Positions 1-12,912 of a stretch of 12,912 nt of DNA are shown here, piece after piece. The stretch comes from Escherichia coli (GTDB taxonomy: Bacteria; Pseudomonadota; Gammaproteobacteria; Enterobacterales; Enterobacteriaceae). The notes beneath the pieces were generated by a model that was not told where the DNA came from, did not search any database, and saw only the letters and a list, made by a program, of their open reading frames with translations. Each line of letters begins with the position of its first letter. Position 1 is the first letter of the stretch. The DNA lies in assembly GCF_003334305.1 (NCBI RefSeq), contig NZ_QOWS01000042.1. One strand, 5' to 3'. Made by a program: the position numbers and the translations under genes.

Positions 1-1125
1 CCAGCCTGTTGGCGGAGTGGCTGAAGGCCACGGAACAGGCACCCCAACCGGTAATGCAGAGCCTTCTCCTAAACCAAGGTATGTGAGAAGACCAGCTACA
101 TCCTTTCCACTCAAATTGGTAAGCGTATTGTCCAGCGGTTGTTTACCTGCCAGCGCATTAAGCATTGTCGTGGCAAAGTTCGGATCATTCCCCAGTGCCG
201 CCGCCAGTTCGTTCAGTGTATCCAGTGCAGCAGGTGCAGAACCCACCATTCCTGCAATCGCCGATTTCACAAAAGCCGTAGTGGCAATCTGTGTATTGTT
301 GACCGACTGCGCCGCCGTGGGGGCTGTTGGCGTTCCGGTGAGTGCCGGACTCGACAACGGTGCTTTTAGTGCCAGCGCATTGTTAATGGTGGTACTGAAA
401 TTCGGATCATTGTTAATGGCTGCGGCTATTTCTTTCAGCGTGTCCAGCGTGGCTGGCGCACCATTAATAAGGGCCGTCAGTGCCGCCTGTACAAACGCAG
501 TGGTCGCAACCTGCGTGGTATTATTCCCCGCCGCTGGCGTTGGCGCTTTGGGGGTTCCGGTAAATGTCGGGCTGGCTTTTGGCGCGTACTGTGAATGCGG
601 GTCCGGTGCGGCAAGATGTTTTGCCATCTGATCATCCGCGTAAACCTTCAGCTCCAGTGCCTTGTCATCCACATACTTGCGGGTTGCCAGCACTACAGCA
701 GGGTCGATTTTCAGGGTGATATTGTCCGTGCTGCTGGTAATCAGCACCATGCGCACGGTCTGAGTGCGCCCGCTACCTTCAGCCAGTTGCGGCTTATAGC
801 TTTCCGGGCAGTTGCCCACGGCAATCAATGCCCCGGACTCATCAAACAAGCCCACTTCACGTATCCACCAACCGCCCTCGTTTTCAGGGATCACCTGTTC
901 GGCAATAATCTGGCTGCTGTTCTGCGGGTCGATATAAAGCATATTCAGCGCAGCCCGGCGTTTCTCATTTACCAGTGCCGTCTGCTTTGCGTCCGGCGTT
1001 GGCAATACTCCACCGCCATCGCCCACCGCCATATGGGTAATTTTTAGCGGCACACCGAGCGCGGCGGCGCTGGCAAGTTTCGCCGCGCCAATATCCGTCA
1101 GCAGGGTATAAAATTTTGTGCTCAT
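1..1125 (-). CDS. H: Tail fibre protein, P2 gpH-like; N-terminal ~375 codons only, C-terminus lies beyond the window start
   Basis: Hand translation of the minus strand in the frame ending at 1125 is open to position 1. It begins MSTKFYTLLTDIGAAKLASAAALGVPLKITHMAVGDGGG, resembling the P2 gpH N-terminus as recalled, and contains ...NDPNFATTMLNALAGKQP. The ATG at 1125..1123 overlaps the stop of gene I (ATGA). Missing from the ORF track only because it has no stop inside the window. Confidence 0.85.
   Translation of the reverse strand, partial: MSTKFYTLLTDIGAAKLASAAALGVPLKITHMAVGDGGGVLPTPDAKQTALVNEKRRAALNMLYIDPQNSSQIIAEQVIPENEGGWWIREVGLFDESGALIAVGNCPESYKPQLAEGSGRTQTVRMVLITSSTDNITLKIDPAVVLATRKYVDDKALELKVYADDQMAKHLAAPDPHSQYAPKASPTFTGTPKAPTPAAGNNTTQVATTAFVQAALTALINGAPATLDTLKEIAAAINNDPNFSTTINNALALKAPLSSPALTGTPTAPTAAQSVNNTQIATTAFVKSAIAGMVGSAPAALDTLNELAAALGNDPNFATTMLNALAGKQPLDNTLTNLSGKDVAGLLTYLGLGEGSALPVGVPVPWPSATPPTGW
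142..585 (-). repeat. Tandem duplication of a ~74-codon (222 nt) tail-fibre repeat unit inside H (units 364..585 and 142..363), diverged copies
   Basis: Both units translate to SPxxTGTPxAPTxxxxNNTQ(I/V)ATTAFVxxAxxxxxxxAPAxLDTL(K/N)E(I/L)AAAxxNDPNF(S/A)TTxxNALAxK. Nucleotide similarity is visible, e.g. 'aaattcggatcatt' near 166-185 and 398-412. Confidence 0.7.
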
Positions 1126-6862: not shown

Positions 6863-7513
6863 TCAGCGGCTGTCATTGCGCAGTCTGCGCTCCAGCTGCT
6901 GTTTGTCTTTTTTCACGCCACAGCGGGGATCGAGCTGTAACGCATGGTTGAGATGATTAAGGGCGGACGCCGGATTGCTTTCACTCAGGACAGCGCCAAT
7001 CGCTTTATGCAGACGCGCCCGTGACTGGTCCGGCATATCCAGACCGTCTGTCAGCTCCAGCGTCTGCAGCAGCGGATCGGCATCAAAGCCGGTGGCGGCA
7101 AGCATTGCGCTCTGCGCCGCGTCTGCCATTTCCTCTGCCAGCACGGTCTGCACGTTGCGGTTACCCAGCGGCATCACCCAGCCATGACGCAGGGCATGAC
7201 GCCCGATCTCCAGCGCCCCTGCATAATCTCCGGCATCAATGCGCCACAGCATCACGTACATCAGCACGTCATCCTGTTGAGCGCCTCCGGCAGCCAGAAC
7301 GCCCTCCGCCCAGGCGGCATATTTCGGCAGCAGCTCCACCTTGATTTCCGCTTTTTTGACCGTGGACTGAACGCCCTTGAGACGGCGGCGGTCTTCCGCC
7401 AGTTGCAGCAGCATCAGGTCATAGCCCGACGCGTGGCGAACACTGCCGCCCTCGCGGGCGGCCTGTTCAGCCTGAACGCGCAGGCGATGCTGCCGTGCGG
7501 GACTCAGGCTCAT
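6863..7513 (-). CDS. M: Terminase small (endonuclease) subunit, P2 gpM-like
   Basis: 216 aa starting MSLSPARQHRLRVQAEQAARE, with GAQQDDVLMYVMLWRIDAGDYAGALEIGRHAL resembling P2 gpM as recalled. ATG at 7513 is preceded by GGAG and lies 3 nt after the N stop. Confidence 0.85.
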   Translation of the reverse strand: MSLSPARQHRLRVQAEQAAREGGSVRHASGYDLMLLQLAEDRRRLKGVQSTVKKAEIKVELLPKYAAWAEGVLAAGGAQQDDVLMYVMLWRIDAGDYAGALEIGRHALRHGWVMPLGNRNVQTVLAEEMADAAQSAMLAATGFDADPLLQTLELTDGLDMPDQSRARLHKAIGAVLSESNPASALNHLNHALQLDPRCGVKKDKQQLERRLRNDSR

Positions 7514-9567: not shown

Positions 9568-11334
9568 ATGAACACCACACTGACACCCGCAGATCTCGAT
9601 CCCCGTCGGCAGGCCATGCTGCTGTACTTTCAGGGATACCGCGTAGCCCGCATTGCTGAAATGCTGGGCGAGAAAGTTGCAACCGTTCACAGCTGGAAGA
9701 AACGCGACAAGTGGGGTGACTATGGGCCGCTGGATCAGATGCAGCTCACCACCGCCGCACGTTACTGCCAGCTCATTATGAAGGAGCACAAAGAAGGGAA
9801 AGATTTCAAAGAAATTGACCTGCTGGCGCGCCAGTCGGAGCGCCACGCGCGGATCGGCAAGTTTAACAATGGCGGCAACGAAGCCGACTTAAACCCTAAC
9901 GTCGCCAACCGCAACAAAGGCCCGCGCCGTCAGCCGGAAAAGAATGTTTTCACCGATGAACAGATAGAGAAACTGGAAGAAATCTTCCATTCCTCCATGT
10001 TCAACTACCAGCGCCACTGGTGGGAAGCCGGAAAAACCAACCGCATCCGCAACCTGCTGAAGTCACGCCAGATCGGCGCGACCTTTTACTTTGCCCGTGA
10101 AGCCCTGATTGACGCCCTGCTTACCGGACGTAACCAGATTTTCCTTTCTGCCAGTAAGGCACAGGCTCACGTCTTTAAGCAGTACATCATCGACTTCGCC
10201 AAAGAAGTCGAGGTGGAGCTGAAAGGCGATCCGATGGTGCTTCCTAACGGGGCCACGCTTTACTTCCTCGGCACCAATGCCCGCACGGCGCAGAGTTACC
10301 ACGGCAACCTGTATCTGGATGAATATTTCTGGATACCGAAATTCCAGGAGTTGCGCAAAGTGGCTTCCGGTATGGCTATTCACAAGAAATGGCGACAAAC
10401 CTATTTTTCCACGCCATCCAGCCTGACCCACAGTGCTTATCCGTTCTGGTCCGGTGCGCTGTTCAACCGTGGACGCAACAAAGCTGACAAGGTGGACATC
10501 GACCTGTCCCACAGCAATCTGGCCCCCGGCCTGCTGTGCGCAGACGGGCAATACCGCCAGATAGTCACCGTGGAAGATGCGGTGCGCGGCGGCTGTAACC
10601 TGTTCGACCTCGACCAGCTGCGCATGGAGTACAGCCCGGACGAATACCAGAACCTGCTGATGTGCGAGTTCGTGGACGATCTCGCGTCCGTGTTCCCGCT
10701 CAGCGAACTGCAGGCGTGCATGGTGGACAGCTGGGAAGTCTGGACCGACTTTCATGCACTGGCCCTGCGCCCGTTTGGCTGGCGCGAAGTGTGGATCGGT
10801 TATGACCCGGCAAAAGGTACGCAGAACGGCGACAGTGCCGGATGCGTGGTGGTGGCTCCGCCAGCCGTGCCGGGTGGTAAGTTCCGCATTCTTGAGCGTC
10901 ACCAGTGGCGCGGGATGGACTTCCGCGCCCAGGCTGACGCCATCAAAAAACTGACCGAACAGTATAACGTGACCTATATCGGTATCGACTCGACCGGCGT
11001 CGGTCACGGGGTTTACGAGAACGTGAAAGCGTTTTTTCCTGCTGTCCGGGAGTTTGTCTATAACCCCAACGTTAAAAACGCCCTGGTACTCAAGGCCTAC
11101 GACATTATCAGCCACCGCCGTCTGGAGTTTGACGCCGGGCACACCGACATTGCGCAGTCATTTATGGCAATCCGTCGCGCTACCACTGCCAGTGGCAACC
11201 GCCCGACCTATGAAGCCAGCCGCAGCGAAGAAGCCAGCCATGCCGATCTGGCCTGGGCAACAATGCACGCACTGTTTAACGAACCGCTGCAGGGCGAGTC
11301 CGCCAATACCAGCAATATTGTGGAGATTTTTTGA
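9568..11334 (+). CDS. P: Terminase large (ATPase) subunit, P2 gpP-like
   Basis: 588 aa (P2 gpP is ~590) starting MNTTLTPADLDPRRQAMLLYFQGYRVARIAEMLGEK. It diverges from O and is followed by Q with a TGATG stop/start overlap. Confidence 0.9.
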   Translation: MNTTLTPADLDPRRQAMLLYFQGYRVARIAEMLGEKVATVHSWKKRDKWGDYGPLDQMQLTTAARYCQLIMKEHKEGKDFKEIDLLARQSERHARIGKFNNGGNEADLNPNVANRNKGPRRQPEKNVFTDEQIEKLEEIFHSSMFNYQRHWWEAGKTNRIRNLLKSRQIGATFYFAREALIDALLTGRNQIFLSASKAQAHVFKQYIIDFAKEVEVELKGDPMVLPNGATLYFLGTNARTAQSYHGNLYLDEYFWIPKFQELRKVASGMAIHKKWRQTYFSTPSSLTHSAYPFWSGALFNRGRNKADKVDIDLSHSNLAPGLLCADGQYRQIVTVEDAVRGGCNLFDLDQLRMEYSPDEYQNLLMCEFVDDLASVFPLSELQACMVDSWEVWTDFHALALRPFGWREVWIGYDPAKGTQNGDSAGCVVVAPPAVPGGKFRILERHQWRGMDFRAQADAIKKLTEQYNVTYIGIDSTGVGHGVYENVKAFFPAVREFVYNPNVKNALVLKAYDIISHRRLEFDAGHTDIAQSFMAIRRATTASGNRPTYEASRSEEASHADLAWATMHALFNEPLQGESANTSNIVEIF

Positions 11335-12368
11335 TGGGAAAGAGTAAGAAGAACCGCGCTGCGTCGACGAAACAGATCCAGCATAAAAGCCAGACTTCAG
11401 CCGAAGCATTCAGCTTCGGTGATCCCGTTCCTGTTCTGGACCGCCGCGAACTGCTGGACTATGTGGAATGCGTACAGATGGATCGTTGGTACGAGCCGCC
11501 TGTGAGTTTCGACGGACTGGCGCGAACCTTCCGCGCCGCCGTGCATCACAGCTCACCGATTGCAGTGAAGTGCAACATTCTGACCAGCACCTACATCCCT
11601 CACCCGCTGCTCAGCCAGCAGGCTTTTTCGCGTTTTGTACAGGACTATCTGGTTTTTGGTAACGCCTACCTGGAGAAACGCACAAACCGCTTCGGTGAAG
11701 TTATCGCCCTTGAGCCTGCACTGGCAAAATACACCCGACGCGGGTTAGACCTTGATACCTACTGGTTTGTGCAATACGGCATGACTACGCAGCCGTATCA
11801 GTTCACGAAAGGCAACATTTTTCATCTGATGGAACCGGACATCAACCAGGAGATCTACGGCCTGCCTGGTTATCTTTCTGCCATTCCGTCAGCTCTGCTC
11901 AACGAGTCCGCCACGCTGTTCCGCCGCAAGTATTACATTAACGGCAGTCATGCAGGCTTCATCATGTACATGACCGATGCAGCGCAGAACCAGGAGGATG
12001 TGAACAACCTCCGCAACGCGATGAAAAGCGCCAAAGGTCCTGGTAACTTCCGTAACCTGTTTATGTACTCGCCTAACGGTAAAAAGGACGGGCTTCAGAT
12101 TATCCCGTTGTCAGAAGTGGCGGCGAAGGATGAGTTCCTGAATATCAAGAACGTGAGCCGGGACGACATGATGGCGGCGCATCGTGTGCCGCCACAAATG
12201 ATGGGGATAATGCCTAATAATGTCGGGGGGTTTGGGGATGTGGAGAAGGCCAGTCGCGTATTTGTACGTAATGAATTAACGCCCTTGCAAAAAAGGCTAC
12301 AAGAGCTGAACGACTGGCTGGGCGAAGAAGTGATTAAATTTACGCCCTATATTCTTTCAGAAGAATAA
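11334..12368 (+). CDS. Q: Portal protein, P2 gpQ-like
   Basis: ATG at 11334 (the ORF-track TTG at 11331 is one codon upstream) gives 344 aa, the length recalled for P2 gpQ, starting MGKSKKNRAASTKQ. Its start overlaps the P stop. Confidence 0.9.
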   Translation: MGKSKKNRAASTKQIQHKSQTSAEAFSFGDPVPVLDRRELLDYVECVQMDRWYEPPVSFDGLARTFRAAVHHSSPIAVKCNILTSTYIPHPLLSQQAFSRFVQDYLVFGNAYLEKRTNRFGEVIALEPALAKYTRRGLDLDTYWFVQYGMTTQPYQFTKGNIFHLMEPDINQEIYGLPGYLSAIPSALLNESATLFRRKYYINGSHAGFIMYMTDAAQNQEDVNNLRNAMKSAKGPGNFRNLFMYSPNGKKDGLQIIPLSEVAAKDEFLNIKNVSRDDMMAAHRVPPQMMGIMPNNVGGFGDVEKASRVFVRNELTPLQKRLQELNDWLGEEVIKFTPYILSEE

Positions 12369-12376
12369 TTCCGAAC

Positions 12377-12727
12377 TTATTTGTTTCTTCTTTGTTCACG
12401 CCTTGTCTTGGCTTCGATAAGGCGTTGAGGTTCAGTGTAAAGCCGTTCTAAAAAAAGATAGGTAAAATCTTCAAGATCCTCAGCAGCAGCTTTATCCAAA
12501 ATACCTTCATGCGCTCCATCATTTCCGTCATCTTTAACGCATTCAGCTAGTTCCCTTAAAGCTTCAGGCAGTAGATGATTATCAAATAACCACTCCATTC
12601 TTAACCCTAGGCTTCTCCTTATTTTTTGCGCAGGCCCTTGCTCCCCATCAGGAAGAAGTCCTTTTGTGGCATAATCAAGGCAAAGCCTAAACATGGTTGC
12701 TGCTGCATTATAACAACCTATAGCCAA
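12377..12727 (-). CDS. Hypothetical small acidic protein in low-GC cargo next to the portal gene; possibly HEPN/DUF4145-like (speculative)
   Basis: 116-codon ORF in ~40-45% GC DNA, convergent with Q (stops 8 bp apart). The TTG at 12727 is preceded by GAGGAAGGGG with an 8-nt spacer; the first ATG is at 12694. No homologue recognised with confidence; the motif GNDGAHEG and a helical, acidic composition are the only hints. Confidence 0.5.
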   Translation of the reverse strand: MAIGCYNAAATMFRLCLDYATKGLLPDGEQGPAQKIRRSLGLRMEWLFDNHLLPEALRELAECVKDDGNDGAHEGILDKAAAEDLEDFTYLFLERLYTEPQRLIEAKTRREQRRNK

Positions 12728-12865
12728 ACATTTCGCCCCTTCCTCATATGCACTATTGATATGCTCAGGTAAGAACTCTGGTGGCTCCTCTACTGCTAAG
12801 TCTGCCGGTGATATAGGCCTAACAACCTCTGCAACTGATCCTACCCACGTAATATGGACACAGGC

Positions 12866-12912
12866 CTAAGCGAGGTTCTTGTTTTCAAATTGTTCCGGAC
12901 TGAGGCCGCCAC
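12866..12912 (-). CDS. 3' end of a further minus-strand gene that continues beyond the window end (product unknown)
   Basis: The same minus frame is open from the window edge to a TAG at 12868..12866, reading ...GGLSPEQFENKNLA*. Only 15 codons are visible, so the evidence is weak. Confidence 0.25.
   Translation of the reverse strand, partial: GGLSPEQFENKNLA

Follow-up and report, generated by a model that had tools for sequence, protein, structure and literature searches.

A cos-less prophage remnant in Escherichia coli A7 and a portal-side cargo slot between Q and cos in the Cartapus-type lineage of P2-family phages

In the Cartapus-type lineage of P2-family prophages, the portal gene Q is separated from the cohesive-end site cos by a slot filled with cargo genes. 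We put at about 90% the joint explanation that cos in this lineage lies beyond a Q-side cargo slot, that the one-sided layout of the conserved cos block is what lets the slot take cargo, and that an IS3-linked deletion removed cos from the copy in E. coli A7. The positions and the conservation on which it draws were read directly, as were the deletion and the genes carried as cargo. A preliminary description of this DNA had seen no cos between Q and a convergent cargo gene and had offered three explanations without choosing among them. Two of these stand, each for a different subject: cos lies past the cargo in the lineage, and the A7 copy is packaging-defective. The third, that cos overlaps coding sequence, does not.

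The window, meaning the whole stretch of 12,912 nt that was analysed, is an exact substring of the E. coli A7 chromosome, positions 4102-17013 of the A7 locus slice L003 of NZ_CP028767.1 (an L003 coordinate is the window position plus 4101). In the database this record is given as a complete circular chromosome. The window covers the capsid/packaging end of a Cartapus-type P2-family prophage (genus Elveevirus) integrated at ssrA, and its ORF map is that of a P2-type late region: the plus strand encodes the terminase large subunit and the portal protein, and the minus strand encodes the scaffold, the capsid and the small terminase subunit, after which come the lysis and tail genes. The terminase small (endonuclease) subunit, a P2 gpM homologue and presumably the subunit that recognizes cos, is encoded at 6863..7513 on the minus strand (RefSeq 'terminase endonuclease subunit', L003 10964..11614). 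The terminase large (ATPase) subunit, homologous to P2 gpP, follows at 9568..11334 on the plus strand (RefSeq annotation at L003 13669..15435; Cartapus gp03 is likewise annotated 'terminase large subunit'). The portal gene, encoding an intact 344-aa homologue of P2 gpQ, occupies 11334..12368 on the plus strand, with an ATG at 11334 where the mechanical ORF start is a TTG at 11331. In a megablast comparison with complete E. coli genomes, only one of 5426, A7 itself, matches across the IS3 junction including the last 76 bases; about 42 further E. coli genomes and phage Cartapus match the window only as far as 12836.

Q stops at 12368 and the convergent cargo ORF at 12377, leaving an 8-bp spacer (12369..12376) with neither cos nor a terminator-like hairpin. 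Folding of 12335-12410 was no better than that of shuffled sequences (z-score −0.2), which gives no sign of a bidirectional terminator at the junction. Both the spacing and the lack of a P2/186-type cos nearby, as first described, agree with the coordinates and with searches allowing up to three mismatches. The P2 cohesive-end 19-mer GGCGAGGCGGGGAAAGCAC, found at positions 1-19 of the P2 record and exactly the sequence that the preliminary description had given as approximate, has no match on either strand of the window at that threshold. Because 5 of 19 positions differ, this search would be unable to find the cos of the lineage; the lineage's own putative 19-mer, GGCGTGGCGGGGATACGAG, and the 28-mer surrounding it are likewise missing from the window at up to three mismatches. 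The window reaches only 544 bp past the Q stop, and in the nearest intact relatives cos lies at 817 bp; because the window ends where it does, an intact copy would also show no cos within it. A search of the extended locus, which had been proposed as a check, covered 47 kb of A7 (33 kb in L003 and 14.5 kb in a second slice, L007) and returned no match to the P2 19-mer, the lineage 19-mer or the 28-mer at up to three mismatches. At that threshold, neither the window nor these 47 kb contain a P2-family cos of the form GGCG(A/T)GGCGGGGA... between portal and replication genes. The conserved cos flanks, AAAACC..AAGCGGGC and GCGCGC, are missing from A7 because they have been deleted. This lack of cos is meaningful rather than a matter of chance, because a 22-bp cos core is present past Q, with at most one mismatch, in 75 of 75 relatives with enough sequence.

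An 8-bp gap is too short to house an intergenic site, and this is the one point in favor of a cryptic cos overlapping the 3′-terminal part of either Q or the cargo ORF. Precisely there, where the preliminary description had allowed that a cos-like sequence might emerge, none was found at up to three mismatches, and neither the 19-mers of P2 and of the lineage nor the 28-mer matches anywhere in the window at that threshold. Further, the cos block is intergenic and past the cargo in 75 of 75 relatives. In relatives it stands some 110 bp ahead of the codon at which the cargo gene starts, and the cargo differs so completely among relatives that it cannot hold a conserved site. We regard a cryptic, overlapping cos as vanishingly improbable.

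Intact relatives place cos beyond the cargo. In the Cartapus record, cos occupies positions 1-59 and is annotated only as 'putative, homologous to P2'; the DUF4145 gene follows at 162-860, and then the portal gene at 869-1903. Cartapus is a prophage of strain LF82. The 19-mer lies at positions 32-50 of that record, and cos is also present in A28, E6, OkiPb01678 and the 75 IMG/VR loci. In the sister strain A28 it reads CTCGTATCCCCGCCACGCC at 13287-13305 of the A28 locus slice (L004), 817 bp after the Q stop and past a complete 232-aa gene; in P2 map orientation this is GGCGTGGCGGGGATACGAG. Cartapus, A28 and E6, the closest intact relatives, all have cos 817 bp past Q and past the 232-aa zinc-ribbon/DUF4145 gene. 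Of the 19 positions of the 19-mer, 14 agree with P2 and 15 with 186 (5 and 4 differences). Its neighbors are AAGCGGGC(A/G) and, on the opposite side, (C/T)GCGCGC, the same as in P2, P4 and 186; the right-arm flank AAAACC..AAGCGGGC and the left-arm flank GCGCGC are homologous to theirs. A three-way comparison of P2, P4 and Cartapus gives about 30 + 19 + 6 positions in common, roughly the 55-bp core attributed to Ziermann & Calendar 1990, a core described as conserved among the cos sites of P2, 186 and P4 (Ziermann & Calendar 1990, as cited in PMC5694545 and PMC9594776). From homology to these three elements we infer the exact cleavage site of the lineage, putatively GGCGTGGCGGGGATACGAG. Cartapus DNA has been reported in LF82 virion preparations only at a low level, and no indicator strain was found (PMC9928086).

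To see how general this arrangement is, consider the 80 IMG/VR loci whose portal genes are at least 93% identical to that of the window (93-100%), 75 of which have enough downstream sequence. The 22-bp cos core lies past Q in all 75, mostly without a mismatch and otherwise with a single one, and the distance from the Q stop to the cos block is 159-3497 bp (median 1756). A comparison of the cos block relative to Q among related prophages had been suggested at the outset, and together with the 817 bp of Cartapus, A28 and E6 it bears out the proposal that cos lies further out past the cargo. One to four ORFs occupy the interval in 74 of the 75 loci, nearly all on the strand convergent with Q and beginning 9-100 bp from the Q stop, and they fall into 66 protein clusters. 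Sixteen of 20 representative cargo proteins match PADLOC models at E ≤ 1e-5, among them ShosA/ShosT (ShosTA), retron I-C (Ec67-type), retron II-A, NDT, IetA/IetS (IetAS), AbiU, bSEFIR, PD-T7-1 and NsnA, together with the candidate systems PDC-M03, PDC-S06, PDC-S49 and PDC-S59. The Q-cos interval in the Cartapus-type lineage is a cargo slot that holds mostly anti-phage systems, with cos beyond the cargo; the two marks of a P2-like defense hotspot, variable content between gpQ and gpA and anti-phage cargo, are both present. About 40 other E. coli genomes have the same Q-DUF4145 junction as the window, and an E. coli genome that shares the far-side gene of A28 carries a retron Ec67-family reverse transcriptase in the slot. 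Transcription of the cargo runs almost always from the cos side toward Q, so that the cargo ends a few bases from the Q stop. A consensus scan of the A28 Q-to-cos interval returned fewer promoter-like sites than shuffled sequences did, and one weak hairpin, inside the cos block.

By contrast, P2 proper almost never uses this side of cos. Among 79 loci with portals at least 99% identical to that of P2, the Q-to-cos distance is 156-185 bp in 76 (167-170 bp in 72) and exceeds 1 kb in only two. The stretch from cos to gpA varies in both lineages; beside the 159-3497 bp from Q to cos in Cartapus-type loci, the distance from cos to gpA is 783-3645 bp. The side of cos preferred for cargo may be lineage-specific, the Q side in the Cartapus-type lineage and P4, and the gpA side only in P2 proper. 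That P2 has Q close to cos and its accessory genes on the opposite side, as the preliminary description stated, is correct for P2 and for 186; 'Q next to cos' is a property of those two phages rather than a rule of the whole family.

Conservation around cos offers a reason why the slot can be filled. In a profile of 71 distinct sequences anchored at the 19-mer, conservation begins abruptly about 10 bp on the Q side of the 19-mer, where only 6-10 bp (GCGCGC) are conserved, and extends within the lineage for about 145 bp on the right-arm (gpA) side, a stretch that includes a GC hairpin and several CATGC repeats and of which about 30 bp are common to P2 and P4. On the portal (left-arm) side, P2, P4 and Cartapus have only GCGCGC in common. 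This pattern suggests that the elements recognized by terminase sit on the right-arm side, with hardly any requirement on the Q side. If so, the DNA from the nick site to the portal gene would be free to vary, and the slot would tolerate cargo because the conserved block is one-sided, a reading drawn from conservation. In P4, the variable genes gop/beta/cII are likewise on the left-arm side, directly beside cos (PMC9122126).

The cargo gene of the window survives as a 3′ remnant on the minus strand (12377..12835), codons 81-232 of a 232-codon gene for a zinc-ribbon plus DUF4145 (HEPN-like) protein; this stretch is 100% identical to Cartapus 401-897 and to A28. RefSeq calls only 12377..12727 of it (116 aa, TTG start). 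The full-length 232-aa relative in A28, E6 and Cartapus has an N-terminal CPRC...CRECH motif in a CxxC...CxxC arrangement, a Pfam DUF4145 domain at residues 114-203 (E 7e-7), and a weak but significant match to the PADLOC model PD-T7-4 (E 1.2e-6, 26 bits). Because a PDB sequence search with the full-length protein had no match at E ≤ 0.01, and what appeared up to E ≤ 10 was noise, the PADLOC model is the one source of the link to RAZR, and its weak match suggests that the full-length cargo protein is a distant relative of PD-T7-4/RAZR. PD-T7-4 is RAZR (ring-activated zinc-finger RNase). This zinc-finger/HEPN enzyme becomes active when it assembles around phage proteins that form rings, portals for example, and its zinc-finger domain contacts the phage trigger (PMC13017515). 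The full-length protein resembles RAZR/PD-T7-4 in its zinc-ribbon plus DUF4145 layout. The window copy, residues 81-232, lacks the first 80 residues including the zinc ribbon; it thus departs from the architecture of an N-terminal Cys4 zinc ribbon and a C-terminal DUF4145 in about 200-230 aa, and the truncated ORF has no PADLOC match. Because it has lost the zinc ribbon, the domain that contacts the trigger in RAZR, the remnant is presumably inactive.

Similarity of the window to Cartapus and A28 ends at 12836, where an IS3 element starts. The window holds the first 77 bp of this copy (12836..12912, transposase on the minus strand), beginning with the terminal repeat TGATCCTACCCACG..., and ends inside the element. 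The whole copy in A7 (L003 16937..18194) is identical to one in A28. It has the features of IS3, namely a length of about 1.26 kb (here 1258 bp), imperfect terminal inverted repeats beginning TGATC (ends TGATCCTACCC.../...GGGTAAGATCA) and a two-ORF frameshifted DDE transposase, annotated by RefSeq at L003 16967..18129 as 'IS3-like element IS3 family transposase, programmed frameshift'. In A7, IS3 abuts codon 81 of the cargo gene; in A28, it lies 2.6 kb past Q. On the far side of IS3, A7 reads exactly as A28 does after its identical copy, the distal flanks being the same. In the one public assembly on which the deletion rests, A7 equals A28 minus L004 12938-15094 (2157 bp) and is otherwise collinear with it. 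Lost with these 2157 bp are codons 1-80 of the DUF4145 gene, the cos block and a gene for a 434-aa protein.

No 3-bp target-site duplication accompanies IS3 in A7 or A28, the flanks reading ...AAC before the element and CAT... after it in both. Such flanks are what one would see if a deletion ended at each joint, as opposed to a simple insertion having occurred there, and in this respect the A7 element has nothing unusual for IS3: it shows an adjacent deletion without a target duplication at the joint. We infer that IS3 was the agent of the deletion. Intramolecular transposition, or a second insertion followed by recombination between the copies, would give the same product, and the two routes cannot be told apart from sequence. 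The deleted segment was not found elsewhere in A7 among the best 60 of 1282 records, a scope within which a diverged cos of another P2-like element elsewhere in A7 may escape. We also considered whether IS3 had inverted or moved the missing segment within A7, and rejected this: a full-length copy would rank first, and none is among the matches listed.

A comparison with the intact E6 prophage indicates how much more has been lost. From cos onward, E6 carries the 434-aa gene, DinI, gpA, dam, a cII-like gene, the repressor, the integrase and a partial ssrA. In both A28 and A7, the region past cos is replaced by IS3 and CP4-57-type island genes up to ileY; the other prophage end reads ogr, a hypothetical gene, a gene with a reverse transcriptase domain, and ssrA. 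The genes past IS3 (a 1283-aa protein and others) were considered as further prophage cargo and set aside: what follows is CP4-57-type island genes (GTPase family, ypjA) and ileY, and intact E6 has DinI, gpA and int there instead. An earlier IS3-associated loss, common to A28, had taken DinI through gpA, the repressor, the integrase and the attachment site, and the later A7 joint deletes the 2157 bp that include cos. The A7 copy is a late-gene remnant without early region or cos, and it can neither replicate nor package its own DNA. The suspicion that the prophage is packaging-defective is thereby confirmed, and its cause, the IS3-linked deletion of cos together with the missing early region, is invisible in the window.

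Two readings would keep cos in A7. In the first, cos is intact just outside the 12.9-kb window and the prophage is normal and complete, as in Cartapus/LF82, in E6 and in the roughly 40 further E. coli genomes with this Q-DUF4145 junction. In A7, however, the sequence past 12835 is IS3 and then unrelated island genes; no cos, gpA, repressor or integrase gene is present in L003 (33 kb) or L007 (14.5 kb), and the missing 2157 bp are not elsewhere in A7 among the matches listed. This makes a complete prophage highly improbable. In the second, A7 has IS3 in direct orientation both within the DUF4145 gene and where A28 has it, and assembly collapsed the two copies and left out the intervening 2157 bp, so that cos would be present and the early region still absent. 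Both junctions do carry the identical IS3, with left flanks that both end in ...AAC, and the segment is absent from the assembly (among the matches listed), although a collapse and a true deletion alike would lead one to expect that. Against such an artefact, NZ_CP028767.1 carries the label of a complete circular chromosome, a 1.26-kb repeat is well inside the span of long reads, and an intermediate with two copies would be unstable in its own right and, on recombining, would yield this very deletion. We consider an assembly artefact very improbable.

One speculative reading holds that what remains is more than debris. All genes from ogr to Q are annotated intact in A7 and A28, strains of different hosts and continents that are 99.9% identical. 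P4 delta turns on P2 late genes without helper replication. The A7/A28 element might be a retained late-gene cassette, without cos or replication genes, that acts as a non-competing helper for the host or for a P4-like satellite. If this were true, it would supply capsids, tails, terminase and lysis functions, yet could not package itself. We hold this very unlikely.

Under the favored reading, of a lineage with cos beyond a Q-side slot and an A7 copy that has lost it, some practical points follow, with little importance beyond annotation hygiene. In the Cartapus-type lineage, the main slot for defense genes is the portal-to-cos interval, and cos should hence be sought up to 3.5 kb from the portal gene, using the lineage's own 19-mer. 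The A7 prophage is a remnant without cos or early genes and is not to be counted as an inducible phage. One-sided conservation would give a simple rationale for the loading of cargo beside the packaging site by P2-like phages and P4 satellites, and it suggests a minimal block of about 160 bp for cosmid designs.

That cos lies beyond portal-side cargo is a known arrangement, explained by known biology. The cos-proximal region between gpA and gpQ is a published defense hotspot of P2-like phages (Rousset et al. 2022, PMC9122126; Vassallo et al. 2022, PMC9519451; a 2026 preprint). The hotspot definitions in these three sources name no side of cos for the cargo. For phiRSY1-type phages, PMC5694545 suggests the ORFs between cosL and the gpQ homologue as a hotspot. 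It refers there to Nakayama 1999 and to Dodd & Egan 1996, the latter reported to have found retrons Ec67 and Ec86 in place of DNA between cos and a terminator of a 186-related prophage. To this the present analysis makes small additions: figures for the contrast between a Q side filled nearly always in the Cartapus-type lineage and hardly ever in P2 proper, the abrupt limit of conservation on one side of cos, and the removal of cos from A7 by an IS3-linked deletion.

Set beside P2 and 186, the lineage is alike in having cos between the portal and replication genes, homologous terminase subunits and similar cos flanks. The cos sites of P2, P4 and 186, with 19-nt 5′ cohesive ends, are experimentally defined, and the lineage 19-mer differs from those of P2 and 186 at 5 and 4 positions, respectively. 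In P2 and 186, about 167-176 bp separate the portal stop from cos, with the terminator tQ/tW followed by cos, whereas in the lineage the distance is 159-3497 bp and cargo replaces tQ/tW. The slot shares with the P2-like hotspot at the old/tin locus its variable cargo between conserved gpQ and gpA, and the two hold overlapping systems (ShosTA-type DprA/PRTase, Ec67-type reverse transcriptase, PD-T7-1). In P2, however, the cargo genes old and tin lie across cos from Q, and the P2 lineage hardly ever fills the Q side, which is occupied in 74 of 75 Cartapus-type loci. In placing cargo on the left-arm side beside cos, the Cartapus-type lineage instead resembles P4 (gop/beta/cII), the retron prophages and the phiCTX/phiRSY1 group.

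On the right-arm (gpA) side of cos, a conserved GC hairpin (AAAGCCCGCC...GGCGGGC) is accompanied by repeated (G/T)CATGC motifs, as seen in the compared stretches from the sister strain A28 (slice L004, 13306-13450), the Cartapus right end, P2 (33465-33574) and the P4 right end. These motifs include a GCATG-N5-GCAT pair ~110 bp from the nick site, at equal distance in P2, P4 and Cartapus. The hairpin and the (G/T)CATGC motifs are candidate terminase-binding elements. On the opposite, portal side, a large portal-to-cos interval downstream of the portal stop occurs in only 2 of 79 loci of the P2-proper lineage, L126 (1439 bp) and L136 (2513 bp); in another locus of this lineage, L158, the interval is shortened to 92 bp.

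Two strains carrying the Cartapus-like prophage, A7 (orangutan, USA) and A28 (echidna, Australia), are 99.9% identical, with differences too few for a selection test. Loss of the early region predates their divergence. Despite this earlier loss, the late genes, from ogr to Q, are all annotated intact in both A7 (L003) and A28 (L004).

Collinearity between the two strains starts only at window position 63, within the tail-fibre gene. Upstream of this point, A7 carries a tail-fibre 3' end along with tfaE, two small ORFs and a gene of the recombinase family (tail-fibre region, window 1-62 and L003 1947-4163). Because a 177-bp stretch of this upstream sequence matches A28 in inverted orientation, the sequence comparison suggests a Gin/Cin-type invertible host-range segment in the A7 tail-fibre region.

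At the prophage end opposite to the Q/cos side, outside the window, the interval from ssrA to ogr holds a reverse-transcriptase-domain gene (257 aa) as well as a small ORF (A7 slice L007, 7268-8183). This interval may be a further, att-proximal cargo position.

Beyond Q, the zinc-ribbon and DUF4145 (HEPN-like) cargo gene is full length in A28 (L004 12478-13176). In A7 it is cut at codon 81 by a 1258-bp IS3 copy, within which the window edge falls (window 12836-12912, running on to L003 18194), leaving the 3' two-thirds of the gene on the minus strand (window 12377-12835). The A7 IS3 copy lacks a target duplication; in A28, a copy identical to it, and bordered by the same distal flank, lies 2157 bp further out. 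The remnant lies 8 bp from the portal gene of its own prophage. The full-length cargo gene matches the PADLOC model of PD-T7-4; recent work characterised this system, RAZR, as an abortive-infection RNase that senses portals (PMC13017515).
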